This document shows positions 1-38,871 of a stretch of 64,000 nucleotides of DNA, in pieces. Within the stretch, counting starts at the first letter, position 1, and the number at the start of each line of letters is the position of its first letter. The DNA comes from Candidatus Niyogibacteria bacterium (GTDB taxonomy: Bacteria > Patescibacteriota > Minisyncoccia > JACROR01): assembly GCA_016186495.1 (NCBI GenBank), contig JACPLO010000010.1, forward strand, positions 26,905 through 90,904. The letters are read 5' to 3'. A program made the position numbers and the translations under genes. The notes under the pieces are model-generated. The model was not told where the DNA came from and did no database searches. It saw only the letters and a program-made list of their open reading frames with translations.

Positions 1-102
1 CTCCCAAACAAAGAAAAAAGGCGGAAAATTTTTAAAAAATGCGGAATTCCGGAAAAAGCCCGCGCCGAAAATTTAACGCTTGAAAACTGGGCTTGCCTTT
101 GC

Positions 103-139
103 GAAAAAAAATAACCCCCACGCTTATAAAGCGTGGGGG
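103..139 (-). terminator. Intrinsic terminator hairpin for minus-strand gene 154..753
   Basis: Hairpin CCCCCACGCTTATAAAGCGTGGGGG at 115-139; A-run 103-112 on + (= T-run on minus) lies 3' of the stem in the minus-strand orientation, placing the terminator just downstream of the stop codon at 154. Confidence 0.5.
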
Positions 140-153
140 GACGGATTCTATAT

Positions 154-753
154 TTATAAATATAGAATCCAGCCAACCCACTGATTACCGATTTGGTAAT
201 CAGTGGGATTACCATCAATGTACAGAGAATTCGTATAAGGCCGCCCCTCTGTACTTTTAAAAATAAACTGCCCAGTATAGGCAAAAACATTAAACCTATA
301 CTGGCCCAATGGCAGTTTTATGAAAAGGACATTTATCCTTTCATAATAATTACCGTTTTCCCGGCGGCCAGAAGTATCAAACATAATTTCCTTGATACTT
401 CCATTTTCATCGCGTAATCGCAAAGTAATGCTTTGCGAAAACGGCGATTCAAAATGAATGGCTTCTAAGCCGTCCACTTTAAGCCAATGAGAAGAAAGTT
501 TCTCCCAGAACCATTTCTGATTCTGGTTGTCATATCTAAGTACCCGGCCCGGAGTAAGAACTTCAGCCGCGCCTCTATATGGAATCCAAAGGTTTTGCTC
601 CCCTTGGACAAAAATTTCTACATCTTTGCTGACGCCGCGGTCTTGATTAATCAGGGCGCCAAGCTGGGCATCCTTATTTCTTTCAGCAAACCCCCCGGGC
701 GAGGTTTTTATTGCTCCTTGATTTCTAAGATCGTTCGCCAGATTAGCGAGCAC
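154..753 (-). CDS. hypothetical protein
   Basis: 199-aa ORF from track; no recognisable motif. Confidence 0.35.
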   Translation of the reverse strand: MLANLANDLRNQGAIKTSPGGFAERNKDAQLGALINQDRGVSKDVEIFVQGEQNLWIPYRGAAEVLTPGRVLRYDNQNQKWFWEKLSSHWLKVDGLEAIHFESPFSQSITLRLRDENGSIKEIMFDTSGRRENGNYYERINVLFIKLPLGQYRFNVFAYTGQFIFKSTEGRPYTNSLYIDGNPTDYQIGNQWVGWILYL

Positions 754-954
754 AGCTGGCCCGCCTTTTGCTGTGAAAAATATAACCTAAAAGCATTATT
801 CTTTTCATTTTAAACACCTCCTTACTCTTAAAATAGACTTAATATTAGATTCATATTTTTCCTCCTTTTATCCTAAGGGTAACCCTTGGGAATTATTTTC
901 AAAAAACTAATCGTATTTATTATAATTATATCAGAAAATATAAATTTGTCAACT

Positions 955-963
955 TGTGGATAA
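955..963 (+). promoter_or_regulatory. Perfect DnaA-box 9-mer (TGTGGATAA, reverse orientation) upstream of ORF 1025..2011
   Basis: Exact complement of TTATCCACA read from sequence; functional role unproven. Confidence 0.3.
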
Positions 964-1024
964 AAAATCGGGAAAAACAAGAAAAAAAGTGCTAAAATAA
1001 AAATAGCAGAAACTGACCGCAAAT

Positions 1025-2011
1025 TTGAATTTTGCCGGTATTTTGAATTATTCAATGTTTTGGCCAAGCAAAAAAATAATTTATTTAATCGCCGGAATAG
1101 GAACAGCCGGATTACTGCTGTTTTTTCTGCCAATCGTTAAATCTGGACTAAACAAGAATCAAGAATCAAAATTTAAAATTTTTAGTTCAAGCAACCAGGA
1201 ATTAATCCAGAAATTGGAGCAGGAAGCGCAAAAAGACAGCGACAACGACGGCCTAAAAGATTGGGAGGAAGCGCTCTGGAAAACCGATCCGCTGAATCCG
1301 GATACGGATAAAGACAATACCTTAGACGGCGAAGAAATCAGGCAAAATCGCGACCCGCTCAAAGCCGGACCGAACGACCAATTGCCGGATTTAAAAATTG
1401 GAGCGGAAAATAAAATTATTGGCTTGAATTCCCAAGATTTTGCCGCGACAAATTTAACCGGCCAGATCGCCAAGACTCTCGGTTTTAAAGCTTTAAGCGG
1501 CGCGGAAAATAAAAATTTCAGTGTGCCGGCTGATTCGGAATTGCTGGATTCCGCCGCGGAAAAAACTTTGGCGGATTTCACCGCTTTGTTTCATCCGCAA
1601 ATTTCCGAAAACGAATTGATTGTCATAAACGACAACAGTGAAAAAAATTTTGCTGAATACCTTCAATCGTTCAGTAAAGTTATCGCTGAAAATCCTTTGC
1701 CAAAAATATCGCAGGAAGAAGCTTTTCTCCAAGCGGTTCAAGATAAAGATTTTTCCAACAGCAACGAATACCTGAATTATTACCAAAAAATAACGTGGGA
1801 GCTGAAAGAAATTCCCGCGCCAAAAACCTTTGTTTCCAGCCATAAACGGATCATTGAACTTCTGCTCGGAAAAATAGTCGTGCTGGAAAATTTAAAAGAA
1901 ATTGAACGCGATCCTTTGAAAACGATAATCGCCCTTCAAGAACATGAAAAAATCAACGAAGAAATCCGGCAACTGATGAATAAATTTGCTGATTTTTTTA
2001 AGAAGATATAA
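1025..2011 (+). CDS. membrane-anchored protein with acidic Asp-rich (DxDxDG-like, calcium-binding-type) repeats
   Basis: N-terminal hydrophobic helix (IYLIAGIGTAGLLLFFLPIV); DSDNDGLKDWEE / DPLNPDTDKDNTLDGEE repeats. Confidence 0.4.
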   Translation: MNFAGILNYSMFWPSKKIIYLIAGIGTAGLLLFFLPIVKSGLNKNQESKFKIFSSSNQELIQKLEQEAQKDSDNDGLKDWEEALWKTDPLNPDTDKDNTLDGEEIRQNRDPLKAGPNDQLPDLKIGAENKIIGLNSQDFAATNLTGQIAKTLGFKALSGAENKNFSVPADSELLDSAAEKTLADFTALFHPQISENELIVINDNSEKNFAEYLQSFSKVIAENPLPKISQEEAFLQAVQDKDFSNSNEYLNYYQKITWELKEIPAPKTFVSSHKRIIELLLGKIVVLENLKEIERDPLKTIIALQEHEKINEEIRQLMNKFADFFKKI

Positions 2012-2055
2012 ATTAAAATCCTAAATTCCAAATCCTAAATCCTAAATAAATTCCG

Positions 2056-2421
2056 ATGATCAAAATTCAAAATTCAAAACAATATGATTTAGAAGAACGA
2101 ACGTTTGAGTTTGCAAAAATGGTTAGAAGTTTCATTAAGAACTTACCCAAAACCACAGGAAATTTTGAAGACGGAAAACAGGTAATTAGATCTTCCGGCT
2201 CAATCGGCGCGAATTACATTGAGGCAAATGAATCATTAAGCAAAAAAGATTTTATAATGAGAATTAAAATCTGCCGAAAAGAAGCCAAGGAAACGGAATA
2301 CTGGCTAAAGCTAATTGATGTAAATAATAGCGCTGAATTAGAAATTGAAGAACAAAAACTTATTAGAGAAGCTGTTGAATTGAGAAAAATTTTCGGCGCC
2401 ATTTTAGAAAAATCAAAATAA
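2056..2421 (+). CDS. four-helix-bundle protein (23S rRNA intervening-sequence protein family)
   Basis: 121 aa; SIGANYIEANESLSKKDFIMRIKICRKEAKETEYWLKL matches the conserved core of the four-helix-bundle family; flanked by inverted AAATCCTAAA/TTTAGGATTT repeats. Confidence 0.55.
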   Translation: MIKIQNSKQYDLEERTFEFAKMVRSFIKNLPKTTGNFEDGKQVIRSSGSIGANYIEANESLSKKDFIMRIKICRKEAKETEYWLKLIDVNNSAELEIEEQKLIREAVELRKIFGAILEKSK

Positions 2422-2494
2422 TGTTTCGATCATTAGAATTTTGAATTTAGATATTGTTTAGAATTTAGATATTAGAGTTTAGGATTTTGTTTAA

Positions 2495-5269
2495 ATGAAT
2501 CAATTTTCAAACAAAAATTCAAAAACGCGAAAAATCTTAGCCGGAATTTTGCTTTTGATAATTTTATTTTCCGCAAGCTCTTTTTATCCGCGCCAAGCTA
2601 AAGCTGAAACGCCGGTCGCCGATTGGTTTATGAGAATCACTTCTGCATCCGGTTGGGCGTCAGCTATCGCTAATTATGCCAAAGAAGCGGCTGAAAAAGC
2701 GGCTAATATCGCGACCGCGACCTTCCGAAAAATGATTTTGGATATGATTGTGGATGAAATAATCGCCTGGATTTCCGGCGAAGGAACTTCGACTTTTGAC
2801 ACCGGCGATTGGGGGCAATTTTTTGATAAAGCGGCCCAGCAAGCCGGCGGCATATCCTTGGAAGAAATAACCGGGCCGGCTATAATGCAGCAGCTTTGCG
2901 ACGCTGATTGGGCCGGCCAAGTTCGGCTCGCTCTCCAAACTCCTAAAAAATTTGCCCAAAAAGCCCGCTGCACTCTTAGAGACATCGGCGTGAATTTTGA
3001 CGCTTTTATGGATAATTTTGAAAACGGCGGCTGGGCCGCCTGGATTAAAATTTCCGAAAGCCAAAACAATCCTTATGGCTATTTTCTTTCCGCGGTTAAT
3101 GAAAAACTAGCAAAAGAAACGCAGAAAAAACTGGGACTGGAAAAAGAGCTTACCGCTTCCGGCGGATTTTTAAGCGATAAAGTTTGCCGTAAAATATCCT
3201 GCCAAACGCGTTTGAAAATTGCGGGAACACAAGAAGCCGAATATAAAGAAGAAACGGGAAAATGGAAAGAAGATGAAATACCTATAAAAGACGGGACACC
3301 GTGCACTTGCGAAAAATGGGAAACCCTCACCCCAGGCAAGACAATGGCGGATTCTTTAAGCAAAACTGTTTTTAAAGATGTTGACTGGCTGAATGAAAAT
3401 TCAGAATGGTATAATTACGTGGTGGCGATCGGCGACGCGATTGTCAACCGGCTGACTAAAGAAGGGGTAAAAGCCATAAAATCCGCGGTCCCGCGAGGTT
3501 TGCCCACCTCTGTTTCTCAAGGCGTTACCGGCAAGGTTGATTACACGCCTCCTTTAACCTCGGCTAAAATTATTGATGTTTGGCAGGTAAAATTAACCGC
3601 CAATGAACCGGGAGACACTTATTACACTCTTGACGGAACAAAACCGCGCGTTCGCGCTTCTCCTAAATACAACGGTAAAGCGCTGACTATTATCAGCTCC
3701 ACCGCTCCGGGCGCAGCCACGGCCCAGTTAAAATGGCTTAGCGTGGATGACGCTTTCAATACCGAAGATCCGCGCAGCCTGCCGGTTTTTCTGCGCAGCC
3801 CTTTTAATTATTCAACTTTAACCGCTTATCTGGCCAGCCAAGACATCAGCATTCCCGAAAGCATCAAAGAAGCGCTGATAAAATTCTTCCGCGACGAAGA
3901 AAACGGAAAAGAAGCCGCAAAAATCGCCAAGGAAACTTTTATTCCCGCGAATATCCGCGAAGATTTAAAAAACTATCTGAAAATAGAAGATTTAAGAATC
4001 CAGTTAGGCAAAGAGTCTTTAATTAATCCGATCCAACGCAGCCAATTAGACGCTATTTTGGCGACTTACGAAGATTTTAATTCCGCTAATGACGGAAAGC
4101 TTACTGATCTCATTAATGTTTTAATAAAAATAAAAGAAGCGGGAATTAAAGCGTTTATTGACATTCAAACTCATGCCGAAGAAATCAAAGACCGGCGAAA
4201 TAATTTACAATCAATTCTCTCTTATCTCAACGGAGTAATCGCCAGCCTTGAAATATGTTCAAAAGCCCAGGCCGCGGCCGTTATTCGGGAAGGAGAAACA
4301 GCCGAAGAATTCGCCGTCAGAATAGCCGTTGAATCCAGCGCTTGCCAAAAAAACGCCAAAGCCGGCGCTTTTCCCGTTAATCTCAACGGCTTATCCTCGG
4401 GCTTAGCAACGGATCCGCTCTTTTCCGAGCTTAAAGATAAAACAGATAAAATAATTTTGGAACGTTCTTTATTCACGATTGATCCGGCCGGCAATTGGAG
4501 CAAACCTTCCGCCGCGCTCGCGCCAACGGATTCCGGACACGCGGCGATTCTTTCATTTAATCCTTTAACCGACAAACCCACGGCGATTTTCTTTAAACAA
4601 TCATCTTGGGAGACGGCAAATGATCGCAGCGCCGCAGTATCACTTCGTTTTAATAATCAAATTAACGGCTTTTATTATAAACAAGCTTTGGCTGTTCCGT
4701 CCGCAGTGAGTTCCGGCGGCACTGAAATCTGGTATGGAGCGATTGACGCGGCCGGCAATTGGACGGAAGAAAAAACGACTCAAGAATTTAACGCGGATTT
4801 TACCGATCTCCCTCCGCTCACTGATTTTGTCAAGCCAATCGCGGAAATTAAAAATCCGGTTAAAGGAAGTGACGGATATTTTATCTTAGACCCTTCGCTT
4901 TCCGTTGATTTTGACAGCACGCCGCGGATTAGCGGCTATGAATGGGATTTTATTAATAACCGCGGCGCTACGACAACAACCCAATCGCTCCAATATGAAT
5001 GGGAAGCTTTTGATTTAAACCGCGACGGCATTTTTACCGAAAACAACCAATGCCTTTATAATTTTTATTTAAATAATAATGAGGGAACGGTCGTCACCGG
5101 TATGGCTGGTTCAGACACATATTACGTGAACAACGACAACACCCGAGCAGTATCCGGCAGCTTAAGTCAAAAATATTATGACGCGGCTCATAGCTCGCCT
5201 TACAATAAAGCTCCCAATACAAGGCCGTTATATCTCAATCTGCAGCCAACCTGCCTAAAAAACAAATAA
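2495..5269 (+). CDS. large secreted/cell-surface protein (signal peptide; chitobiase/hexosaminidase-C-like YYTLDGTKP motif; Ig/PKD-like C-terminal regions); possible -1 frameshift extension to 5532
   Basis: 924-aa ORF, N-terminal signal/TM segment; downstream frame (5209-5532) encodes a PKD-like segment with no start codon and overlaps a slippery A AAA AAC at the stop. Confidence 0.55.
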   Translation: MNQFSNKNSKTRKILAGILLLIILFSASSFYPRQAKAETPVADWFMRITSASGWASAIANYAKEAAEKAANIATATFRKMILDMIVDEIIAWISGEGTSTFDTGDWGQFFDKAAQQAGGISLEEITGPAIMQQLCDADWAGQVRLALQTPKKFAQKARCTLRDIGVNFDAFMDNFENGGWAAWIKISESQNNPYGYFLSAVNEKLAKETQKKLGLEKELTASGGFLSDKVCRKISCQTRLKIAGTQEAEYKEETGKWKEDEIPIKDGTPCTCEKWETLTPGKTMADSLSKTVFKDVDWLNENSEWYNYVVAIGDAIVNRLTKEGVKAIKSAVPRGLPTSVSQGVTGKVDYTPPLTSAKIIDVWQVKLTANEPGDTYYTLDGTKPRVRASPKYNGKALTIISSTAPGAATAQLKWLSVDDAFNTEDPRSLPVFLRSPFNYSTLTAYLASQDISIPESIKEALIKFFRDEENGKEAAKIAKETFIPANIREDLKNYLKIEDLRIQLGKESLINPIQRSQLDAILATYEDFNSANDGKLTDLINVLIKIKEAGIKAFIDIQTHAEEIKDRRNNLQSILSYLNGVIASLEICSKAQAAAVIREGETAEEFAVRIAVESSACQKNAKAGAFPVNLNGLSSGLATDPLFSELKDKTDKIILERSLFTIDPAGNWSKPSAALAPTDSGHAAILSFNPLTDKPTAIFFKQSSWETANDRSAAVSLRFNNQINGFYYKQALAVPSAVSSGGTEIWYGAIDAAGNWTEEKTTQEFNADFTDLPPLTDFVKPIAEIKNPVKGSDGYFILDPSLSVDFDSTPRISGYEWDFINNRGATTTTQSLQYEWEAFDLNRDGIFTENNQCLYNFYLNNNEGTVVTGMAGSDTYYVNNDNTRAVSGSLSQKYYDAAHSSPYNKAPNTRPLYLNLQPTCLKNK

Positions 5270-5538
5270 GCGAGAGTGAATTCAACGGCCATCCGATTGA
5301 AGAGCGGCAAGGAGCAAAATTTGATATCACTGATTCAACTTATAAAAAACTTTCCAAAATTACGTCTTCAATCGGCACCGGCGCTTCTTATGAAGATATG
5401 AAAATTGTTGACCCTAATAACGGCATTATCAAAGTGAAATTCACGGCCAAAAGCGGCCCGTTGACCATTGGCTTGAGAGTAACCGACGATGAAGGCCTAA
5501 CCGCAACCGCATCCGTTGAAATCAATCCTTAATAAAAA

Positions 5539-7380
5539 ATGAAAAAAAATTTGCCGGACAAAAAATATATTTTAATCGCGTTAGCCAGCCTGATAATCAT
5601 TCTCGGGCCGTTCGCGGCGGAAACAACGTTCGCTTGGCTTCCTTCTGTTTTTCCTTCCATTGAAGATATATTTGCTTCTTTAGGTAATGTGATACTCTGG
5701 ATTGTTTCCTGGGTTTTATGGCTGGCCGCGCAACTTTTTGAAATGACCCTTAAATTAACTCTAAACAACGGCGCTTTTGCCAAGATCAGCGCCATTAATC
5801 TTGGCTGGAAGATTATTCGGGATGTGGTTAATCTATTTTTTATTTTTATTCTTCTTTATATCGCCATCGGCGCCATTTTGCGCCTGGCCGGCCATGATAC
5901 CAAAAAACTCCTGGTTAATTTAATCATCGCGGCTCTTTTAATAAACTTCAGTCTGCCTATTACTAAAGCCATTATTGACGCTTCCAACATTCTGGCTTTG
6001 GAATTTTACGATAACATCGGAAAAGACAAAGACGGAAATGATATCGGCGTAACTAGAACAATGATGAATGGCCTGCGCCTGACTTCTGTTTATAATAACA
6101 AAGTGTTAGAAATACCTCCCGGAACAGCGGATAAAGAAGGAGCTGCTTTCCAAAATATTATTATAGGCGCAATCGGCGGATCAGCCCTTATCTTAGTCAC
6201 GGCTTTTGTTTTTCTCGCCGCCACTTCTCTTTTTATTTTCCGGACAATCATACTTTTATTTTTAATGATTCTTTCACCTTTGGCTTTTGGCGCGATGATC
6301 CTGCCTAACACCAAACAATACGCTGACCGTTGGTGGAAAGAACTGGGCTGCCAATGTCTGCTGGCGCCGGCTTTTATGTTTATGATTTATTTGGTGGTGA
6401 TGATTATTAATAACGAGGATTTTTCTGCCGTGATCAGCGGAATTGGCGGAAACCAATCAGCAAGCATCGCTGAAGCCTTTACCAGCGGCATAGAAAAATC
6501 AGTTGGGGTTGTCCTTAATTTCTTGCTTTTAATCGGCTTAATGATCGGTTCCCTGATTATTTCTAAAAATTTGGCTTGCGCCGGCGGCAGCCAGGCAATG
6601 GCCGCGGCTAACTGGACAAAAGGAAAGGTCCAAGGATACGCGAAAAGCTATGGTAAAAGAGGCATTGGCACCGCAGCGGAATACGCGATGGAAAAAGGGA
6701 AGAAAATAGAAGAAAAAGGAGGTCGTTGGGGAAAAATAATGGGGGTTATCAGAAAAACTCCGGGCGTGGGCCGCGGCTTAGCCGCGCTATCCGCGGGCCG
6801 AGAAGAAGAGCTTGCCGCCAAACGCAAACAATATGAAAAACAATATAAAGGCTACAGCGATACCGGCTTGCAAACCATGCTGGAAACGGAAATCATTACT
6901 CCAGAAAAAAGAGAAGTTATTAAAAAAATCCAAACAGGAAGACAGGTGAAGAAAGAAATTGAAGCCAAAGAAAAAGCAAAATACAAAGAAATAGTCGGCG
7001 GCGAGGAAACCGAAATTGAATATGAAAAAGAAGGAAAAACGGTGAAAGAAAAAATAACAACCATCGGCAAACTTGGAGAAATAAATGAACAACTAAGCAA
7101 AATAACGGGAGGAATAAATAAAGATATCGGCAGTTATCTGGACGGAATTGAAGCGGAATTAGGAAAATTAAGCGGCAATACTTCAGGCAGAGCCCAACAA
7201 AGACAAGGAGAACTTGTTTTCAACCGAAATAAAATAAACAGATTAATGAAAGAAAAAGAAAAACTGGAAGCAATAAAAGAAAAACTGGAAGAAAAACAGC
7301 AAAGCGAAACGGAAAAAAAGAAACTTGAAGAAAGATTGGGAAAACTTGAACAAAAACCCGAACCAAAAGAAATAATTTAA
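5539..7380 (+). CDS. polytopic membrane protein, VirB6/TrbL-like, with Lys/Glu-rich coiled-coil C-terminus
   Basis: 613 aa, multiple hydrophobic helices in the first ~350 aa, position upstream of the VirB3/VirB4 genes; assignment by architecture and context. Confidence 0.45.
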   Translation: MKKNLPDKKYILIALASLIIILGPFAAETTFAWLPSVFPSIEDIFASLGNVILWIVSWVLWLAAQLFEMTLKLTLNNGAFAKISAINLGWKIIRDVVNLFFIFILLYIAIGAILRLAGHDTKKLLVNLIIAALLINFSLPITKAIIDASNILALEFYDNIGKDKDGNDIGVTRTMMNGLRLTSVYNNKVLEIPPGTADKEGAAFQNIIIGAIGGSALILVTAFVFLAATSLFIFRTIILLFLMILSPLAFGAMILPNTKQYADRWWKELGCQCLLAPAFMFMIYLVVMIINNEDFSAVISGIGGNQSASIAEAFTSGIEKSVGVVLNFLLLIGLMIGSLIISKNLACAGGSQAMAAANWTKGKVQGYAKSYGKRGIGTAAEYAMEKGKKIEEKGGRWGKIMGVIRKTPGVGRGLAALSAGREEELAAKRKQYEKQYKGYSDTGLQTMLETEIITPEKREVIKKIQTGRQVKKEIEAKEKAKYKEIVGGEETEIEYEKEGKTVKEKITTIGKLGEINEQLSKITGGINKDIGSYLDGIEAELGKLSGNTSGRAQQRQGELVFNRNKINRLMKEKEKLEAIKEKLEEKQQSETEKKKLEERLGKLEQKPEPKEII

Positions 7381-7416
7381 CCCTGTTAAATGTTTTGCTT
7401 TGCAAAATTTAACAGG
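7381..7416 (+). terminator. hairpin CCCTGTTAAAT...ATTTAACAGGG following the VirB6-like gene
   Basis: perfect 11-bp inverted repeat read directly. Confidence 0.45.
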
Positions 7417-7435
7417 GTTAATCCATTAAATTAAA

Positions 7436-8077
7436 ATGAAATCATACACCGAACAAGAATTGGAAAAAAAATACAAACAACTTCCGGCAACAGTAGAGGA
7501 AGTGATTTTCAGCGCTAATGCGGCAAAAACTCTGGAAGAAATCAGGAAAAAATACAAACTTCAGATAGACCAACTGGGGATTTTAGCCAATGAAACCCGA
7601 CTGGTGATGCTCGGCCTGACCCATCCTAAAGATTTTATCAATAATCTGGCGGAAGGGCTGGAATTAAACAAAGAAATCGCAAAAAACATCGCCCAAGAAA
7701 TAAATCAGCGGATTTTTTACAAAATCAGGGAAGAATTAAAAAAAATGCACAGCATCGGCGAACCGGCTGATTTTTCGCCAAAGGCAGGTTCGCCTCTTCC
7801 GCCTAAAGCTGGCCAGCCTTCGGCTGGGGCTAAAAAATTCAGAATTCAGGATTTAAAAAAAACAGCGGAATTGCCGCCGATTATTGAACCAACGCCGTTA
7901 GAGCCGCCGCCAACAGAACCGCCGCCGTTAATCGCGGAAAAACCAAAAATCCCTGCCGTGCCGTTTGAACACAAACTGAAAAGCGAAGAAACAATCCGGC
8001 AGCCGCTTGAAAAAATCAAAACTTCACCGGATAAAAAATATCCCGGAGAAGACCCGTACCGCGAACCGATTATTTGA
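7436..8077 (+). CDS. hypothetical protein with Pro-rich C-terminal half
   Basis: 213-aa ORF; PPxEPPP repeats; no known domain recognised. Confidence 0.35.
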   Translation: MKSYTEQELEKKYKQLPATVEEVIFSANAAKTLEEIRKKYKLQIDQLGILANETRLVMLGLTHPKDFINNLAEGLELNKEIAKNIAQEINQRIFYKIREELKKMHSIGEPADFSPKAGSPLPPKAGQPSAGAKKFRIQDLKKTAELPPIIEPTPLEPPPTEPPPLIAEKPKIPAVPFEHKLKSEETIRQPLEKIKTSPDKKYPGEDPYREPII

Positions 8078-8126
8078 TAATATTTTTTATAAATTAAGAA
8101 ATACGGACAAATTGCTTTAAATTTTT

Positions 8127-8534
8127 ATGCAATATCAAGTTCCCCAATTTACCGAGGTTGAAGATAAAATTTTCGGGCCCCTGACTTTCAAACAGTTCGT
8201 TTATATTCTGGGCGCCGCGGCTTCCGCTTTTCTTTTTTGGCGCCTTTTGCCTAAATGGCTGGCTGTTCTTTTAATCGTTCCGATCAGCGGATTTTTTCTG
8301 GCGCTGGCTTTTTTAAAAATCAACGGCCAGCCTCTGCTTAAAGTTTTAACCAGCGCTCTTAATTTTTCCATCGGCAGCCGGCTTTATATCTGGAAAAAAA
8401 CCGAAGAAAAACCATTAGAAAAAAAAGAGGAGACGCTCGCCGAAAAAGAAGCGCTGGCTCTGCCCAAACTTACGGAAAGCAAATTAAAAGAGCTGGCGTG
8501 GAGTTTGGACATCCACCAAAAATTAAAACGTTAA
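8127..8534 (+). CDS. PrgI/VirB3-like small membrane protein
   Basis: 135 aa; KIFGPLTFKQFVYILGAAASAFLFW motif typical of the PrgI family, followed by two TM helices; sits immediately upstream of VirB4. Confidence 0.5.
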   Translation: MQYQVPQFTEVEDKIFGPLTFKQFVYILGAAASAFLFWRLLPKWLAVLLIVPISGFFLALAFLKINGQPLLKVLTSALNFSIGSRLYIWKKTEEKPLEKKEETLAEKEALALPKLTESKLKELAWSLDIHQKLKR

Positions 8535-8538
8535 TTCA

Positions 8539-9174
8539 ATGAAATCTAACCCCAGCCAACAATTAATTCCCATTTCGGAAATTCGCGACGACGTCGTTAT
8601 TCTGAAAGACGGCTCTTTCAGAATGATTTTAATGGCTTCTTCCATTAATTTTTCCCTTAAATCTCTGGAAGAACAAAAAGCGATTATTTCCCAATACCAG
8701 TACTTCCTGAATACTTTGGATTTTTCCGTCCAATTTCTCATCCATTCCGCTTCTTTGGATATTAATCCTTATCTGACGATGCTGAAAGAAAAAGAAAAAA
8801 CGCAGACCAATGAACTTTTAAAAATCCAAACGCGGGAATATTCGGAATTCATTAAAAACTTCATTGAAACGAATAAAATAATGTCCAAGACTTTTTATGT
8901 CGCCGTTTCTTATACCGCCGCGGTTGTTCCCGCTGCCGGCGGCCTCTTGGAAAGTTTTAAAAAATTAACCGGCCAGAAAGAAAAAAGCTCGGAGTCGGAG
9001 GAAAAATTTTTGGAACATAAAAACCAGCTCTGGCAAAGAATAGACGCGGTCACCGAGGGCCTGGCGCGCTGCGGCGTGCGCACTGTTCCGCTGAAAACCG
9101 AGGAATTGATTGAATTATTTTATCAGCTTTACAATCCCGGCGAAACCGCAGAAGGAATAGCGCTTAAAACATAA
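8539..9174 (+). CDS. VirB4/TraE-family N-terminal domain (split from the ATPase domain)
   Basis: IPISEIRDDVVILKDGSFRMILMASSINFSLKSLEEQKAIISQYQYFLNTLDFSVQFLIHS resembles the CagE/TrbE/VirB4 N-terminus; stop TAA at 9172-9174, next ATG at 9176 in the +1 frame. Confidence 0.55.
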   Translation: MKSNPSQQLIPISEIRDDVVILKDGSFRMILMASSINFSLKSLEEQKAIISQYQYFLNTLDFSVQFLIHSASLDINPYLTMLKEKEKTQTNELLKIQTREYSEFIKNFIETNKIMSKTFYVAVSYTAAVVPAAGGLLESFKKLTGQKEKSSESEEKFLEHKNQLWQRIDAVTEGLARCGVRTVPLKTEELIELFYQLYNPGETAEGIALKT

Positions 9175-9175
9175 C

Positions 9176-11005
9176 ATGGCTTTACTTGATTTTTTCAAAT
9201 CAAAAAAGAAAGAAGAAAAAGAGGAGGAAATCTTGCCGGTTTTCCCCGCGGAAATTTATGAAGCCGGCGCTTTGGAATTAAAAGACGTCATCGCGCCTTC
9301 CGCTTTTGAAATAAGCTCAAATTTCATAAAAATCGGCAATAAAATCGCTAAAACTATTTTTGTGTATTCTTATCCCCGTTATCTTTCCACGGAATGGTTT
9401 TCCCCGATCATTAACTTGGATCAAATTTTTAATGTTTCTATTTTTATCCATCCCATCAACACCGAAACAGTCCTGAAACAAATGCAGAAAAAAGTGGCGG
9501 AAGTCCAGTCGCAGATCAGCATCCGCGAAGAAAAAGGGCTGGTTCGCGATCCGATTTTAGATACCGCCTTAAACGATCTGGAAAATCTGCGCGACAAACT
9601 CCAGCAAGCCCAGGAAAAACTTTTCAGCGCGGGAATTTACCTTACTATTTACGGCGACACGCTTCAGGAAGCGAACCAAAATGAGGCGGAAATCCGCCAT
9701 ATTTTAAACGCCAAACTGATTCAAACCAAACCTGCTCTTTTTCAGCAACAAGAGGGATTTGACAGTGTTTTGCCGTACGTCACCGACAAACTCCAGATCA
9801 ACAACCGCCTTAATTCCGAGCCTTTGTCTTCTATTTTTCCTTTTGTCTCTTTTGACCTCACCTCGGATAAAGGCATCCTTTACGGCATAAATCGCCACAA
9901 TAACTCGCTGATCCTTTTTGATCGCTTCAGTTTGGAAAATTACAATTCGGTTATCTTTGCCAAAGCCGGCGCCGGAAAATCATACACCACCAAATTAGAA
10001 GTCCTCCGTTCTTTAATGTTCGGCATAGACGTGATGATTATTGACCCGGAAAGAGAGTATGAATATTTGGCGGAAACCGTGGACGGCCGCTATATCAACA
10101 TTTCTTTAACTTCAAAAAATCATATTAATCCTTTTGATTTGCCGATTCCGCGGGAAGATGAATCGCCTTCCGATGTTTTGCGCTCTCATATCATTAATCT
10201 GGTCGGCCTTTTCCGCTTAATGCTGGGAGGATTGACGCCGAAAGAAGACTCTATTTTAGATCAAGCCATCACCGAAACCTACGCCGCCCATGACATTACT
10301 TTTGGAGCGGATTTTACCAAAGTTACGCCGCCTATTCTTTCCGATCTGGAAATGATTCTCGCTTCCACCGAAGGCGGGGAAGGATTGGCCCAGCGCCTGA
10401 AAAAATACACCAGCGGCAGTTGGGCGGGATTTTTAAACCAGCCCACTAACGTTGATATTAATAAACACTTGATTGTTTTTTCCGTCCGGGATATGGAGGA
10501 AGAATTAAAACCCGTGGCTATGTATCTGATCACCCATTATATCTGGAACGCGGTGCGGCTAACTTTAAAAAAACGGCTTTTAATCATTGATGAGGCTTGG
10601 TGGATGATGAAAACAGAGGATGGGGCTTCCTTCCTTTTCGGTTTGGCCAAACGGGCGAGAAAATATTATCTGGGAGTCTGCACCATCACTCAAGATGTCG
10701 GAGATTTTTTAAATTCTCCGTACGGCAAAGCGATTATCACTAATTCCTCAATGCAGCTTCTTTTGCGCCAATCTCCCGCGGCAATGGATCAACTGCAGGA
10801 AACATTCAACCTGACGGATGAAGAAAAATATCTTCTGTTGGAAGCGGACGTGGGCGAAGGCGTCTTTTTTGCCGGTTTAAAACACGTGGCGATAAAAGTG
10901 CTGGCTTCTTACACCGAAGATCAAATCATCACTTCTGATCCGGCCCAAATGCTGGCGATTAAAAAAGCGAAAGAAGAATATCAGCAATCCCAAGAAACGG
11001 GTTAA
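9176..11005 (+). CDS. virB4: VirB4-family type IV secretion ATPase (C-terminal NTPase part)
   Basis: Walker A AKAGAGKSYTTK; Walker B-like LLIIDEAWWMM; 609 aa; combined with 8539..9174 gives ~820 aa, normal for full-length VirB4. Confidence 0.8.
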   Translation: MALLDFFKSKKKEEKEEEILPVFPAEIYEAGALELKDVIAPSAFEISSNFIKIGNKIAKTIFVYSYPRYLSTEWFSPIINLDQIFNVSIFIHPINTETVLKQMQKKVAEVQSQISIREEKGLVRDPILDTALNDLENLRDKLQQAQEKLFSAGIYLTIYGDTLQEANQNEAEIRHILNAKLIQTKPALFQQQEGFDSVLPYVTDKLQINNRLNSEPLSSIFPFVSFDLTSDKGILYGINRHNNSLILFDRFSLENYNSVIFAKAGAGKSYTTKLEVLRSLMFGIDVMIIDPEREYEYLAETVDGRYINISLTSKNHINPFDLPIPREDESPSDVLRSHIINLVGLFRLMLGGLTPKEDSILDQAITETYAAHDITFGADFTKVTPPILSDLEMILASTEGGEGLAQRLKKYTSGSWAGFLNQPTNVDINKHLIVFSVRDMEEELKPVAMYLITHYIWNAVRLTLKKRLLIIDEAWWMMKTEDGASFLFGLAKRARKYYLGVCTITQDVGDFLNSPYGKAIITNSSMQLLLRQSPAAMDQLQETFNLTDEEKYLLLEADVGEGVFFAGLKHVAIKVLASYTEDQIITSDPAQMLAIKKAKEEYQQSQETG

Positions 11006-11034
11006 TTCGTTTTTGATGATTAATTTTTACGACT

Positions 11035-11406
11035 ATGGACGGAGACGAAAATCAAAGATTAATGGAGTTACAGCAAGCGCGGCTGGGAGCGCTGGAAACG
11101 GCAAAAACACCGGCGCAAGAAATGAAAGAAGCGCTTTCTTTCGGAAAAAAAGTTTCCGAACATTGGCTGATTTTGGGAATTGCCGCGCTTTTTGACCTTT
11201 TAGCTCTGATTCCTTTTGCCAGCGTTTTTTTTAATTTTTGTTTCGGCGGCGTTTTATTTTTTTATTTCGGGCCAAAAAGAAAACCGGGCGATTCGGAATT
11301 GGCAAAAATTTTTCTGCCGATAATGGCCGGCAGTATTTTTGATTTTTTTATCAGTATTCTGCCGATTAATATCGCCGCTGCCCTGATTAGAATCGCGCTG
11401 AGTTAA
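11035..11406 (+). CDS. small integral membrane protein
   Basis: 123 aa, 3 hydrophobic helices; within the T4SS-like cluster. Confidence 0.35.
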   Translation: MDGDENQRLMELQQARLGALETAKTPAQEMKEALSFGKKVSEHWLILGIAALFDLLALIPFASVFFNFCFGGVLFFYFGPKRKPGDSELAKIFLPIMAGSIFDFFISILPINIAAALIRIALS

Positions 11407-11421
11407 TTGTTATAATAAAAT

Positions 11422-12405
11422 ATGCCGAATTATCGTAAAAATATCATTTTATTGCTTATTTTATTTATCCTTTTATCGCTGCCCGCTGAAATCAAGGCGA
11501 TCGGCGATGATTTTTTCATCACCTTTCTCCCCGATAATCCAACGCCGAATTCTCCGGTCACCGTTAAACTGAAAAGTTATCAGTTTGACGTTAACCGGGC
11601 GGCGATTACTTGGGAAGTTGACGGAAAAGTCATTGCCGGCGGATTAAGCGAAAAAACTATTCAGCTGACCAGTCCGGATTTAGGCAAAACTAAAAAACTC
11701 ATTGTTTATGTCACCACGGCTGACGGCATTCAAGCCAGCCAAACTTTTATTCTAAACGGCAACGATCTTGATTTTCTTTGGGAAGCGATGACCTCGGTGC
11801 CGGCCGGCTACAAAGGCAAAGCTCTTCCCAGCGCGGGATCAACCGTAAAAGTTTCCGCTATTCCTTATCTCTTTAAAGACAATAAAAAATTATCGCCGGA
11901 AAGTTTAGTTTACGAATGGTCGCTTGATTTTAATAAAAAAATCAGCGCCTCGGGCGCGGGAAAAGATTCTTTTACTTTTTCTCTTGACGGCAATCAAGAC
12001 CGCACAATCGTCTTAAAAGTTTCCGACCGCCTGGAAACAATCAGTTTTGAAAAAGGATTTACCATTTCCGGCGATAATACGCCGCCGGAAATCTTGTTTT
12101 ACGAAGAACATCCTCTGGAAGGGCCGATTTATCGCCGGGCGCTCCTCGAAGAAGTCAGCCTCCGCGCCAACGACTTGGCTCTGCGCGCCGAACCTTTTTA
12201 TTTTTCGCAAGAAAACATCGCTAACCTTTCCTATGAATGGAAAATGAACAATAAGCCGCTGGCTAACGAAGAAAGGCCGCGCGTTTTGAATCTTTTGGCG
12301 CCGGCCCAAAGCGCGGGAAAAACCGCGATTGAAGTTACGATTAAACATCCGGATAAATTTTTACAGTTTGCCGATGCGGCGCTTGATATAATTTTTGGAG
12401 AATAA
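11422..12405 (+). CDS. secreted protein (signal peptide), unknown function
   Basis: 327 aa; N-terminal ILLLILFILLSLPAEIKA signal; beta-rich composition. Confidence 0.4.
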   Translation: MPNYRKNIILLLILFILLSLPAEIKAIGDDFFITFLPDNPTPNSPVTVKLKSYQFDVNRAAITWEVDGKVIAGGLSEKTIQLTSPDLGKTKKLIVYVTTADGIQASQTFILNGNDLDFLWEAMTSVPAGYKGKALPSAGSTVKVSAIPYLFKDNKKLSPESLVYEWSLDFNKKISASGAGKDSFTFSLDGNQDRTIVLKVSDRLETISFEKGFTISGDNTPPEILFYEEHPLEGPIYRRALLEEVSLRANDLALRAEPFYFSQENIANLSYEWKMNNKPLANEERPRVLNLLAPAQSAGKTAIEVTIKHPDKFLQFADAALDIIFGE

Positions 12406-12413
12406 ACCTTGTC

Positions 12414-13007
12414 ATGAATAAATCAAAACAAATAATTTTAATAACAGTTTTGTTAGCCGCGATTTTCATTCCGCTGATTTTTGTTTCTAGCGCTTACACG
12501 CCAATGGAGCCGCTTCCCGGTATTAAAAAAGATACAGCGGTTAATCTAACCGACTATCTATCCGCTCTTTTTAAATATGCCATTACCGTGGCCGCGGTTT
12601 TAGCGGTCATAATGATTGTCATCGGCGGAATGCAGTATATCGGCGCCAGCGGCAACACCAGTGTGGTTGAAGACGCCAAAGACCGGATTTATTGGGCGAT
12701 TGTCGGCCTGATTTTAGCGCTCGGCTCCTGGCTGATTTTAAATACCATTAACCCAAATTTAAAAAACTTAGAATTAAAAGGAATAGAAAAGCAAAGTATA
12801 AAAGACATAACAACAACTGAACTCTTTAGTGAAATTAATGGAAATATTAGCACTGTTGAAAAAAAATCTGCTGAATATCAATGGAAGTCAGCACCTTATG
12901 GAAAAGATTGCGCTGATATTATACCGGGTTGTGTAGGCGTTGATTCAAAAAAATGTGGAGAAACAAAGCCCGCTGAAAAAAATATATGCTGTGCTTGTCC
13001 TAACTAA
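12414..13007 (+). CDS. TrbC/VirB2-like T4SS pilin candidate with Cys-rich C-terminal tail
   Basis: 197 aa; signal-like N-terminus, two hydrophobic helices separated by a GASGNTS loop (the VirB2/TrbC hairpin architecture); C-terminal CxxxxxGC...CC.C cluster. Confidence 0.45.
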   Translation: MNKSKQIILITVLLAAIFIPLIFVSSAYTPMEPLPGIKKDTAVNLTDYLSALFKYAITVAAVLAVIMIVIGGMQYIGASGNTSVVEDAKDRIYWAIVGLILALGSWLILNTINPNLKNLELKGIEKQSIKDITTTELFSEINGNISTVEKKSAEYQWKSAPYGKDCADIIPGCVGVDSKKCGETKPAEKNICCACPN

Positions 13008-13035
13008 TAATTTAATTTTATTTGTATTTTAATTT

Positions 13036-14208
13036 ATGATAACAAACCGCAAAAAAATAATTATTGTTGTTTCCGGCGCCGTTAGCCTGATTATTTTAGG
13101 ATTGATTTTGATTTACTTTTTACTTTTCCGAAGCGTGCCAACGGCGGAACGGGGAGTGATCGGCCGGCTGTTTCCCGCGGCTGAAGAAAAAGAACAATCA
13201 TTCGCTGAAACCATCCTTGGGACAGAACAAAAAGAGGAAAAAATCAAAAAAAGTTTAACCCAACTGACCACGGTCGCGGTCACCGGCTTAAAAGCAATTT
13301 CCAACGGCCGCGTGCGCTACCTGGAAAAAGCCACAGGCCATCTTTATGAAATAGGCGGCGACGGCGAAGAACGGGTGCGGATTTCCAACACCACGATTCC
13401 GAAAATATCCGACGCTTTCTGGTCCGCGGACGCGGACAAAGCAATTTTAAGCATTTTTGACGATGAAAACATTAAATATTTTTCCGCGGTTTTTACCGGC
13501 ACCAGTACCCAAGGAGTGTTTTTGCTTCCGGATATCAATCTCGGCGGATACGCGCCGCGAAAAGACCAGTTTTTATACGGCGCGGCAATCAACGGACGCA
13601 ATTCTTTAATTACCGCTGATCCGAAAAATGCCAAACAAACTAAAATTTACAGCACTCCTTTCGGCGATTTTTCAATCAGCTGGCCCGCGGAAAACGCGAT
13701 CAGCCTGCTGACCCGGCCTTCTGGAACAACCGAAGGTTATCTATATAAAATCAACCCGCAGACCGGCATTTTCAGCAAAATCATCGGCGGCTTAAGAGGA
13801 CTGGAAGCGCTTTGGTCTCCGGACGGAGAAAAAATTTTAATTTCCCAAATCTTGCCGGCTAACGGAGAAATAGTTTCTTCTCTTATTTCCGCTCAAGGAA
13901 AAGAAATTAGTTTAGGGCCGAAAACCATGGCTTCCAAATGCGCTTGGGCCGCCACCACCACGGCCAGCGTAATTTATTGCGGCGTTCCGGTTTATTTTCC
14001 AGCCGGCGTTTATCCCGATGATTGGTTTAAAGGAAAAATATCGTTTAACGACCGTTTGTTCAAAATAAACACCGCTTTTCCGGAAACAGGAGAAATTCTA
14101 ACGGAACAAACTTTTGACATAGAAAAAATAACTGTTGATCCAAAAAGCCACTATCTTTATTTCACGGATAAAAAAGACGAAACTTTATGGGGATTGAAAT
14201 TAGATTAA
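13036..14208 (+). CDS. membrane-anchored TolB-like beta-propeller (PD40 repeat) protein
   Basis: N-terminal TM; LWSPDGEKILIS-type PD40 repeats. Confidence 0.45.
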   Translation: MITNRKKIIIVVSGAVSLIILGLILIYFLLFRSVPTAERGVIGRLFPAAEEKEQSFAETILGTEQKEEKIKKSLTQLTTVAVTGLKAISNGRVRYLEKATGHLYEIGGDGEERVRISNTTIPKISDAFWSADADKAILSIFDDENIKYFSAVFTGTSTQGVFLLPDINLGGYAPRKDQFLYGAAINGRNSLITADPKNAKQTKIYSTPFGDFSISWPAENAISLLTRPSGTTEGYLYKINPQTGIFSKIIGGLRGLEALWSPDGEKILISQILPANGEIVSSLISAQGKEISLGPKTMASKCAWAATTTASVIYCGVPVYFPAGVYPDDWFKGKISFNDRLFKINTAFPETGEILTEQTFDIEKITVDPKSHYLYFTDKKDETLWGLKLD

Positions 14209-15461: not shown

Positions 15462-15800
15462 ATTATTTTAATAATTTTGCTTTTTTAAAAATTTCTAAAA
15501 TATTTTTTTCAAGTTCAAGATAAGAAAGTTCGGTTGCTCCTTTTTTAAAAACTAAAATTATTGCCCCGCCTTCTTTTAAATCAGGCAAATAACGCCTGAT
15601 AATGGAATAAGAACGTCTTCTTAATTTATTTCTCGCCACGGCTTTTTGCCGGCCTTTTTTGAAATCACGCAGGCAAACTTGCTGTGATCTCGGCTGATTT
15701 TCAGATAAACCGTCAAATAATCGGTGAAAAATCTCTTCCCGGTCCGATAAATAAGAAAAAAAACATCCCTGCCTTTCAGTTTGCGGGATTTAGGCAGCAT
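15462..15800 (-). pseudogene. rnpA: RNase P protein component, interrupted by a 1-nt frameshift near 15621-15630
   Basis: Manual translation: MLPKSRKLKGRDVFFLIYRTGKRFFTDYLTVYLKISRDHSKFACVISKKAGKKPWREIN* (59 aa), then the RnpA-like C-terminal part (KLRRRSYSIIRRYLPDLKEGGAIILVFKKGATELSYLEL...) continues in another frame; total span 338 nt, not a multiple of 3. Confidence 0.5.
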
Positions 15801-32924: not shown

Positions 32925-33171
32925 TGAATTTAGCGAGCCGGGATTTTTTGCGGCTGGCGGTGTTTTTTTTGATTACGCCGCGTTTGGCCGCTTTATCAAT
33001 GGCTTGATAAGCGAGAGAAAGAAGATTTTTAGCTTCTTCGTTTTTTCCTTCCATTTTTAAAAGGCGCGTTTTTTTAACGGATTCTTTCATTGTTTTTTTT
33101 ATTCTTGAATTAAGCGCCTGTCTTTTTTTAGATTGCCTTAAATTTTTTTTAGCGGATTCAATGTTCGGCAT
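32914..33171 (-). CDS. rpsT: 30S ribosomal protein S20
   Basis: MPNIESAKKNLRQSKKRQALNSRIKKTMKES... S20 signature. Confidence 0.85.
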   Translation of the reverse strand: MPNIESAKKNLRQSKKRQALNSRIKKTMKESVKKTRLLKMEGKNEEAKNLLSLAYQAIDKAAKRGVIKKNTASRKKSRLAKFIKV

Positions 33172-36262: not shown

Positions 36263-36637
36263 GTTAAAAATTTAAAATTACTTGAATCTCCGATATTTTT
36301 ATAGTAAACTTTTTTTTATGGCAAACAATGTTTAATTTGTGGAAAAGGGTCGCGGATGGGGGGTAAAAGAAATCTTTTGCGCGGAAAATATAATCCTACT
36401 CCTAAAAAACGAAAATATCCCAATCTTCAGTGGGCGAGTTTTCCGGCTGGCGGCAGGATAAAAATTTGCACCCGTTGTCTCAAGAAAAATAAACTGCTTT
36501 ATTTTTCTTCCGATTCTTTGCAAAGCAAAAAAATTGCCAGTATGCCGAAGGCGCGAAGCAATAAGGAACAGAATCTCCATCTCAAAAAAACGGCTGTAAA
36601 ATAACCGTTTTTTGAGATAATAGTAAATAATAAATAT

Positions 36638-36810
36638 CGGGCCATAGTATAATGGCAGTACGCAAGGCTGGCTTTTCAAGTAATTTATCGGGATGTCGTA
36701 TAGTGGCAGTACGCATGCATGGGGTGCATGCAGTCCGAGTTCGATTCTCGGCATCCCGACCAATTACTTGAAAAGTTGCAACTTGGGTTCAATTCCCAGT
36801 GGCCCGACCA
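36638..36810 (+). other. tRNA-like outer halves (acceptor CGGGCCA/TGGCCCG-ACCA; D-arm and T-arm intact) separated by a 13-bp stem enclosing tRNA-Pro
   Basis: 5' part CGGGCCATAGTATAATGGCAGTACG... and 3' part ...TTGGGTTCAATTCCCAGTGGCCCGACCA; CTTTTCAAGTAAT (36672-36684) pairs with ATTACTTGAAAAG (36765-36777). Confidence 0.5.
36689..36762 (+). tRNA. tRNA-Pro (anticodon GGG), encoded CCA
   Basis: CGGGATG acceptor / CATCCCG-A-CCA; anticodon stem CATGC, loop ATGGGGT; T-arm CCGAG-TTCGATT-CTCGG. Confidence 0.75.
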
Positions 36811-36986
36811 TTCAAAATTAAATCAGATTAGAGAAAATCGCGAAGAAAAATGCCTTAAAATCGGCGATTCGTATTTGAATTTAACGCCGCTGATTTTATT
36901 TTTTTGTTTAATCAGCCGCGCGAAGGATTCAACCACATAATCAAAATGTTCTTTGTTGTAGACGCGGCGCGGAATGGCAAGGCGCA
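36805..36986. repeat. 182-bp direct repeat, copy 1 (starts in the tRNA 3' end; carries an orphan copy of the tryptophanase 3' end)
   Basis: ~98% identical to 38690-38871 (3 mismatches). Confidence 0.85.
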
Positions 36987-37244
36987 TTTCTTTGTTTCCT
37001 TTCTTAATTCGATTATTCTTTCTTTAATCCTGATCGGTGTTTCTCTGGGATTAGTTTTTGGCCTCTTTGATTTATTTTCCAGCCCTTCCAATCCGCTTTT
37101 TCTGTAATCAACCAACCAGTATTTAAGCGACCTTTCTGAAAAAGGACACACTCTGACCATATTCTTAATTGATATTTCTTTGTCTAATATCGGTTTAATC
37201 CATCTAAATTTTTCTTCTTTTGTTGATTTGGGCATAGTTTTCAT
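36912..37244 (-). pseudogene. transposase N-terminal HTH fragment (IS481/IS3-type), DDE domain absent
   Basis: FSERSLKYWLVDYRKSGLEGLENKSKRPKTNP resembles transposase HTH; ORF runs out into the direct repeat, no catalytic domain. Confidence 0.4.
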
Positions 37245-37300
37245 ATGCCCTTAGATTATTCAAAAAAGTGCAATATGTGTGTGTAGATTACCGCAAGCAC

Positions 37301-37329
37301 TTGACTTGTGGCAAAAAATAAACTATAAT
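37301..37329 (+). promoter_or_regulatory. consensus sigma70-type promoter (TTGACT - 17 bp - TATAAT)
   Basis: read directly; followed by SD GGAGGTG (37365-37371) 6 nt before ATG 37378. Confidence 0.6.
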
Positions 37330-37377
37330 ACGACGAGCATTTATCGAACCTTAAAAACCTCGATTGGAGGTGATCAC

Positions 37378-38415
37378 ATGAAGCAAACCAAAACTCTACT
37401 TCGAGTGCTATTGTCCCTTCTCATATTAGAGTCCGCGTTCGCAATTCACGAATACGGTCATCTAAGAGAGTTCCAGAAACGCGGCGTCCCTGTCAAGGAG
37501 TTTTCACTCGGGATCGGTCCCAGCATGTACCAATACCAAACTGATTCTTCGCTAACTGTAAGTTTCCGACTCATACCGATAATGGCGTATGTCGCGCCAA
37601 CGGAAGAGGGCGGAAACTTGTTTAAGAAGCAAGGATCGCTTTGGAACAAAATCGCTGTCGATTTGGCTGGAGTGCGTAATAACTTCTTGGTTGGCTTGGC
37701 CATCATACTCTTTCTGCAAATTCTTGGTTGGAGAAGAGGAAATCTCTCCGCAAAGGAACTCGCAGGAACAGCGATGGTTACGCCGTTCAAGATTCCGCTC
37801 CGCTTCGTCGCATTCCTCGTCGGATGCGTGACGTGGGGTCGCATCAACCTGGCGGAGAAATTTCTTCTCTCAACGGGGGGCATCGATCCGCCTAAGCCGC
37901 TCAAATCGCTCATCCTTTGGAACTTGACGCTTGGTCTTTTCAATCTTGCGCCAATTCCTCCACTTGACGGCGGTCACGCGCTAGAAGCTGTCTTACTCTC
38001 GGCAGGAACTAGCATCTACATATCAGAGATTCCGAAGTTTGTGGGCGTTATCCTTTTTGCCGTATATTGCACGACTGCTGGCAATCAGGATATGCGCGTG
38101 CTTGAAGTTGAACCAAGAAGCGACTCCGTGGAATCAAGAAGGGGCACAACGAAAAGAAGATCAAGCGGGGCGCTTGGCCGTTGGGAAGAAGAGGGAGAAG
38201 AAGCCCCCAGCTTCTTTTTGGTCCGGAGGATCACCCACACACATCTTCCGACTCGTGTCAGGAATATTCTCGAAGACTCCAGTATCTGCACGATTGGCGA
38301 ACTGCGGGAAACTACCGCAAGCCAGTTATTGCAGATCAAGGGTTTTGGTCTGAAATCTCTGGAAGCTGTCGAAAAACTTTTACGAGATAAAGGGCTATCC
38401 CTAAAACCGGAGTGA
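37378..38415 (+). CDS. chimeric ORF: RseP/M50-like N-terminal fragment fused to an RNA polymerase alpha-CTD-like HhH domain
   Basis: HEYGHL HExxH + NLAPIPPLDGGH (M50); C-terminal LPTRVRNILEDSSICTIGELRETTASQLLQIKGFGLKSLEAVEKLLRDKGLSL matches the alpha-CTD pattern; GC-rich; track ORF starts 37279 but the RBS-supported start is 37378. Confidence 0.5.
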   Translation: MKQTKTLLRVLLSLLILESAFAIHEYGHLREFQKRGVPVKEFSLGIGPSMYQYQTDSSLTVSFRLIPIMAYVAPTEEGGNLFKKQGSLWNKIAVDLAGVRNNFLVGLAIILFLQILGWRRGNLSAKELAGTAMVTPFKIPLRFVAFLVGCVTWGRINLAEKFLLSTGGIDPPKPLKSLILWNLTLGLFNLAPIPPLDGGHALEAVLLSAGTSIYISEIPKFVGVILFAVYCTTAGNQDMRVLEVEPRSDSVESRRGTTKRRSSGALGRWEEEGEEAPSFFLVRRITHTHLPTRVRNILEDSSICTIGELRETTASQLLQIKGFGLKSLEAVEKLLRDKGLSLKPE

Positions 38416-38689: not shown

Positions 38690-38871
38690 CGACCATTCAA
38701 AATTAAATCAGATTAGAGAAAATCGCGAAGAAAAATGCCTTAAAATCGGAGATTCGTATTTGAATTTAACGCCGCTGATTTTATTTTTTTGTTTGATCAG
38801 CCGCGCGAAGGATTCAACCACATAATCAAAATGTTCTTTGTTGTAGACGCGGCGCGGAATGGCCAGGCGCA
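38690..38871. repeat. 182-bp direct repeat, copy 2 (contains the functional 3' end of the tryptophanase gene)
   Basis: matches 36805-36986. Confidence 0.85.

Follow-up and report, generated by a model that had tools for sequence, protein, structure and literature searches.

A slippery heptamer before the stop codon of a Candidatus Niyogibacteria surface protein gene as the probable by-product of a 73-nt deletion private to one assembly

The heptamer A_AAA_AAC is a proven −1 ribosomal frameshift site of low efficiency in the insertion sequence IS1, where it has no known stimulator (PMC4066793), and A_AAA_AAG takes its place in dnaX and in the IS3 family. In 'saviour' or adventitious frameshifting, slippage partly corrects an indel (reviewed in PMC5009743), while in draft genomes and metagenome-assembled genomes (MAGs) indels split a gene into two adjacent open reading frames (ORFs), in different frames and both homologous to one continuous protein. 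Here we describe a locus that shares features with each of these: a gene for a 924-amino-acid (aa) surface protein in a stretch of 64,000 nucleotides (nt), hereafter the window, from Candidatus Niyogibacteria contig JACPLO010000010.1 (assembly GCA_016186495.1), which carries A_AAA_AAC just ahead of its stop codon. As in IS1 insA-insB', the same heptamer stands in the right register and is followed by a −1 ORF that lacks a start of its own. However, homologues of IS1 and dnaX retain both the heptamer and the two-frame layout, and both products function there, whereas here the layout is found on one contig only; unlike in IS1, dnaX and the IS3 family, the host gene is neither a transposase nor a replication gene, and its intact form lacks the heptamer. 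The likeness to an indel split goes further, in that the lesion is not a multiple of three, a zero-mismatch intact allele exists elsewhere, and the contig carries further private indels. What sets this case apart from the usual split is that 73 nt are missing rather than one base of a miscounted homopolymer, and that the junction happens to mimic a slippery heptamer before a new stop. We conclude from these sequence comparisons that the two frames are, in all probability, a single gene interrupted by a deletion that is private to this assembly, with no recoding.

The initial annotation had read the site correctly. The zero-frame ORF (2495..5269, + strand) ends in CTA AAA AAC AAA TAA, with A6 at 5257-5262 and C at 5263, which places A_AAA_AAC (5257..5263) in the X_XXY_YYZ register two codons before the stop TAA at 5267..5269. 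The zero-frame codons of the heptamer, AAA at 5258-60 and AAC at 5261-63, lie inside the overlap of both frames. The −1 frame, limited upstream by a TAA at 5206-5208, stays open between 5209 and a second TAA at 5530-5532, and its translation gives exactly the peptide that had been quoted. That it has no start of its own was also borne out: no ORF of at least 50 aa with a start is listed there, and the only ATG comes late, at 5398-5400. Between the annotated stop and the next gene lies a gap of 270 nt that is apparently non-coding.

The 924-aa product is identical to the NCBI MAG protein MBI2628288.1 of Candidatus Niyogibacteria, encoded on a 97,938-bp contig and annotated as a chitobiase/beta-hexosaminidase C-terminal domain-containing protein; a CHB_HEX_C_1/Fn3_assoc domain occupies residues 364-424, and the N-terminus, read from the translation, is a hydrophobic, signal-like segment. 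The second member of its 90% cluster is a protein of 1036 aa (P0025), encoded on four contigs (L008, L009, L010, L011) from four runs (SRR4343428, SRR4343430, SRR12113383, SRR12113420). It follows the zero-frame product of the window to LQPTCLK, continues with IPPISITNYYENTYQKNNDALISG, and then runs through the −1-frame peptide KQISESEFNGH to its end. The gene measures 3111 nt on all four contigs and 3038 nt in the window. A prefix of 2767 nt and a suffix of 274 nt are shared, both identical and overlapping by 3 nt, so that a 73-nt gap is the sole difference within the gene. Its placement (5259..5261, + strand) is ambiguous within the 3-nt AAA microhomology, and each of the four possible placements reproduces the window exactly. 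Over positions 1..9789, blastn against contigs from other runs gave 100.000% identity outside this gap (5259-5261) and a 35-nt gap at 776/777. The missing 73 nt correspond to 24 codons (IPPISITNYYENTYQKNNDALISG) plus one base, 73 being 1 mod 3. The intact gene product is thus a secreted or surface protein of 1036 aa from a continuous 3111-nt ORF, and records of the truncated product come from a single contig, that of the MAG. Exact-pattern scans of metagenome_contigs and genome_contigs with the right flank of the junction found neither allele, so no independent copy of the deletion allele turned up in these sets. The two alleles are also predicted to differ at the peptide level, with NQISESEFNGHPIEER (or K-QISESEFNGHPIEER) as the trans-frame tryptic peptide and an intact-allele counterpart that spans IPPISITNYYENTYQK.

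The origin of both the heptamer and the stop can be read from the intact allele, in which the sequence runs TGC CTA AAA | ATA CCG ... TCA GGA | AAA CAA ATA AGC and neither is present. Loss of the 73 nt fuses CTAAAAA to AAAACAAATAAG through the 3-nt overlap and creates the A6C run, the A5 run to the left of the lost segment (CTAAAAA|TACC) being joined to the A4 run on its right (CAGG|AAAAC). The gene's 3'-terminal 270 nt thereby drop into the −1 frame, and a TAA that had been out of frame now ends the annotated product after 924 aa. In the intact allele these stop bases are not read as a codon but form part of CAA ATA AGC (Q I S); because 73 is 1 mod 3, these codons are now read as AAC AAA TAA. 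The truncated ORF accordingly consists of the first 921 codons of the 1036-aa gene, its leading 2767 nt being those of L008-L011, and three out-of-frame codons (AAC AAA TAA). The −1-frame remnant (5263..5532, + strand) is made up of the final 89 codons and stop of the intact gene, QISESEFNGH...LRVTDDEGLTATASVEINP*, within the 274-nt suffix identical to the intact allele. Heptamer and stop are both by-products of the deletion junction. No recoding signal evolved here, and the intact gene needs none.

More distant relatives tell the same story. With the conceptually fused protein as query, three orthologues were found that cross the junction uninterrupted and carry the same C-terminal module, namely P0002 (1043 aa, 61% identity, 100% coverage), P0004 (903 aa, N-terminally partial) and P0005 (700 aa, N-terminally partial, 71% identity). 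A fourth, on contig L019, is encoded by an uninterrupted ORF of 1008 aa and shares this C-terminus; identities of the four range over 53-71%, and the remnant peptide is conserved in all of them. The initial annotation had suggested comparing orthologues for a continuous frame, and the frame is continuous in P0025 on its four contigs as well as in P0002, P0004, P0005 and L019, which decides against a programmed shift. A continuous protein in four assemblies of the same organism and in four distant relatives argues that nothing is recoded. In DNA and protein alignments with the orthologues the window is short by about 24 codons exactly at the junction. The lost segment pairs with IRYYENTYQNSNDAFIS in P0005; within it, the deleted NYYENTYQKNNDALIS aligns with RYYENTYQNSNDAFIS of P0005, with a KYYxxTY motif in P0002 and P0004 and with KYFETTH in L019, the YYxxTY motif of the deleted stretch thus being kept in distant orthologues. 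Invariant in all four aligned sequences are Y154, Y155, T158, Y159 and S168 of the lost segment. The missing segment is, on these alignments, ancestral, and the converse possibility, that the 73 nt are an insertion in the other assemblies, was rejected because distant orthologues share residues that it encodes. When the C-terminal 259 aa of the intact protein served as the only query, a protein search returned no match at E <= 0.001 despite the known orthologues, which looks like a word-index limit and is uninformative. The layout downstream also fits, since the next gene starts 6 nt past the −1-frame stop and its counterparts at the orthologous loci start 3-21 nt past the intact gene in three of four cases (298 nt in L019).

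The −1 peptide had been described as a PKD/Ig-type domain by which the surface protein would be extended. Part of this finds weak support, in that some 30 residues at the C-terminus (IKVKFTAKSGPLTIGLRVTDDEGLTATASVEINP) resemble the last strands, the final third, of PKD and Big_9 profiles below the Pfam cut-offs; for the fused C-terminus the scores are 17.2 bits against a cut-off of 27 for K319L-like_PKD and 15.2 against 27 for PKD_4, and P0002 reaches 14.4 bits against 27 for PKD_4. Matches to clostridial collagenase PKD chains (4jrw, 4aqo, 2y72) have E = 0.004-0.012. The notion of an added domain fits less well: in the zero frame, the YEWDF region resembles the first half of the domain, residues 793-840 of P0002 matching PKD_4 positions 3-49 with E = 0.04, and a PKD-like domain thus seems to have its beginning in the zero frame, the −1 piece completing it rather than adding one. 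The resemblance to PKD and bacterial Ig-like families (PF18911, PF22352, PF17963) lies in these two regions, yet all scores are below the family cut-offs and the two halves are here ~180 residues apart; a PKD-like sandwich formed by them would have to contain a long insert. For the intact C-terminal 259 aa, AlphaFold2 gave a model with a mean predicted local distance difference test score (pLDDT) of 47 and a predicted template modelling score of 0.29, in which only residues 150-200 are confident (pLDDT 85-88). The deleted residues fall within this confident stretch, in beta strands 149-160 and 166-172 of an otherwise poor model. The PKD-like label, as a reading of profile matches, is weakly supported.

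Given that the gene is split by a deletion, it has to be asked whether the deletion exists in cells. About 35 kb of the window could be compared with contigs from seven other runs, and in this span four indels are private to the window. Each of the four is a deletion in the window, and three break ORFs. Besides the 73-nt deletion at 5259-5261 with its AAA microhomology, these are a 35-nt deletion at 776/777 (against L008 and L009) with AA microhomology, which takes the lipobox/signal-peptide part (MLLGYIFSIFLIGCAGSTF...) of a 225-aa minus-strand lipoprotein gene and shifts its frame; a T6 to T5 change at 15643-15647, intergenic between a yidC-like gene and dnaA and within a GGC-T(n)-GCC hairpin-like sequence, at which L012 and L013 both have T6; and a 1-nt deletion at 36322/36323, where L020 has ATGGCTAAACAATG and the window ATGGCAAACAATG, a frameshift at codon 3 of the gene for ribosomal protein L28. 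Substitutions private to the window number one, at 33081 (A in the window; T in L020-L023, from four runs). The mismatch at 17842 is a variant of L014 alone, two bases from its aligned end, L012, L013 and L015 agreeing with the window. Because the indels go one way, are many relative to substitutions and disrupt an essential gene, we consider an assembly or consensus error in this MAG the most likely source of the deletion, with a probability of roughly 0.66.

Several points weigh against this reading. The two larger junctions both carry 2-3 nt of microhomology, a trace expected from illegitimate recombination or replication slippage; the L28 difference rests on one comparator contig and the T5/T6 difference on two; and, by analogy with known slippery sites, some adventitious slippage may occur on mRNA of the deletion allele, if such mRNA exists. 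As to what is left of the two other genes, the lipoprotein gene persists as a minus-strand ORF of 199 aa with a GTG start (154-753), and L28 as a plus-strand ORF (36356-36604) from which the N-terminal MAKQCLICGKGSR with its CxxC is lost.

The alternative that survives best, although we think it unlikely, is a real and recent microhomology-mediated deletion of 73 bp in the strain or subpopulation from which the MAG derives. The gene would then be a fresh pseudogene or encode a truncated variant of a type IV secretion-associated surface protein, and the downstream 270 nt an untranslated remnant with its decay still to come. The AAA at this junction and the AA at the 35-nt deletion would be expected of such an event, the identity of the remnant to the intact allele fits a very recent one, and surface proteins of an episymbiont would be plausible targets of loss of function. 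However, four private deletions against one private substitution in ~35 kb, three of them frame-disrupting and one in an essential ribosomal gene, are unlike natural divergence both in their one-way direction and in their ratio of indels to substitutions, and the allele was seen in no other assembly.

The initial annotation had also offered a single-base error in the A run as the cause of truncation. This was right in locating the lesion at the A run and in taking the two frames for one gene, but wrong about the lesion, which is a 73-nt deletion and not a 1-nt homopolymer miscount, so that one added A restores the frame and not the missing 24 residues. A compound version would combine an in-frame deletion of 72 nt (24 codons) with a 1-nt miscall, a true A7 being read as A6, to give a continuous product of 1012 aa, 24 residues short. 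Excision of ATA...GGA from the intact allele does produce CTA AAA AAA CAA, with A7, and other 1-nt deletions relative to other assemblies are present in the window. Nevertheless, two independent events would have had to fall on one 7-nt spot, for which about two 1-nt deletions per 35 kb imply a chance of the order of 4e-4, whereas a single 73-nt event accounts for everything. Moreover, the lost residues include some that are invariant in all aligned relatives, and they belong to the only strands modelled with confidence. We therefore regard this combination as very improbable.

Equally slight is the chance that the deletion is real and its A_AAA_AAC an accidental, newborn −1 site of the 'saviour' type, yielding a low level of the 24-residue-short protein or making the surface protein of the type IV secretion-like cluster in effect switchable at the level of the population. 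As in known cases of this kind, a frame-disrupting indel lies beside a shift-prone run, and partial suppression would be possible in principle. The difference is that the deletion allele is known here from the sequence of one assembly, and that rescue would give a protein short of 24 conserved residues.

Programmed −1 frameshifting at A_AAA_AAC, the first proposal of the initial annotation, would produce a long (~1011 aa) and a short (924 aa) isoform in a set ratio. In its favor, the heptamer immediately precedes the stop in the right register, the protein sequence encoded in the −1 frame is conserved, and the same heptamer functions in IS1 without a known stimulator (PMC4066793). Against this, heptamer and stop are absent from the intact allele of the same population and from every orthologue, and the long product would be missing 24 conserved residues. 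The downstream stimulatory structure that had been suggested as a check was not found in the 100 nt at 5264-5363, whose minimum free energy of −12.7 kcal/mol is that of shuffled sequence (mean −12.62, z = −0.03; 99 of 200 shuffles fold as well). As a downstream stimulator is not obligatory, IS1 having none, a missing structure alone is not decisive. Upstream, the segment at 5230-5256 (atatctcaatctgcagccaacctgcct) contains neither GGAGG nor AGGAG as a Shine-Dalgarno-like stimulator. The heptamer is also common by chance: 48.9 kb of window ORFs hold 119 in-frame A_AAA_AAN (about one per 410 nt) and 333 in-frame X_XXY_YYZ, and A_AAA_AAC occurs three times in this gene alone, so that a 58-nt frame overlap would contain one with a chance of roughly 13% (A_AAA_AAN) or 33% (X_XXY_YYZ). 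Its presence within the 58-nt overlap is unremarkable. With the break absent from four zero-mismatch assemblies of the same population and from four distant orthologues, and with no stimulatory element, the proposal of a programmed longer isoform fails, and we hold it to be extremely unlikely. Transcriptional slippage, which in bacteria becomes useful at runs of about 8-9 or more, was rejected, as A6 falls short of that length and the intact allele needs no correction.

The public annotation MBI2628288.1 (924 aa) is truncated, and the true population product has 1036 aa and ends in the conserved ...LRVTDDEGLTATASVEINP module. In an A-rich genome, a deletion junction can imitate a textbook slippery site right before a stop; before a frameshift candidate in a MAG is accepted, it should therefore be compared with other assemblies from its population. 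The contig appears to hold several short deletion-type differences, which affects inferences of gene content and pseudogenes drawn from it, and the main value of the present analysis lies in quality control, correction of the annotation and caution about this contig.

The gene adjoins a type IV secretion-like cluster, on the cluster's upstream side, with TrbL/VirB6-like, PrgI, TraC-like, VirB4-like P-loop ATPase (P-loop_TraG) and T4SS_pilin genes, the names being those of Pfam marks on identical or orthologous contigs. Its first gene (5539..7380, + strand) encodes a 613-aa TrbL/VirB6-like protein, orthologues of which match TrbL weakly. The conserved cluster extends over 5539-14208 and contains, in addition, several ORFs that lack an annotation. 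Synteny is kept on L001 and L002, two contigs of related Patescibacteria, and the sizes of the genes on L019 suggest the same there. Searches of the literature turned up no report on type IV secretion in Niyogibacteria. Past the cluster, at ~16-19 kb, lies a replication-origin region with dnaA and dnaN, in which the GC content goes down to 0.30. Farther along, a 182-nt direct repeat (36805-36986 and 38690-38871; 98% identical, 1885 nt apart) flanks an M50-peptidase-like ORF of 378 aa (37279-38415). Near the repeats are a tRNA-Pro(GGG) gene (36689-36762), a 37-nt tRNA-like partial copy (36635-36671) and a helix-turn-helix/transposase-like fragment of 110 aa on the minus strand (36912-37244). 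For the ORF at 38708-40063, a look-up gave no entry. The arrangement around the repeats may stem from a small insertion or from duplication at a tRNA gene, or it may be one more problem of the assembly.

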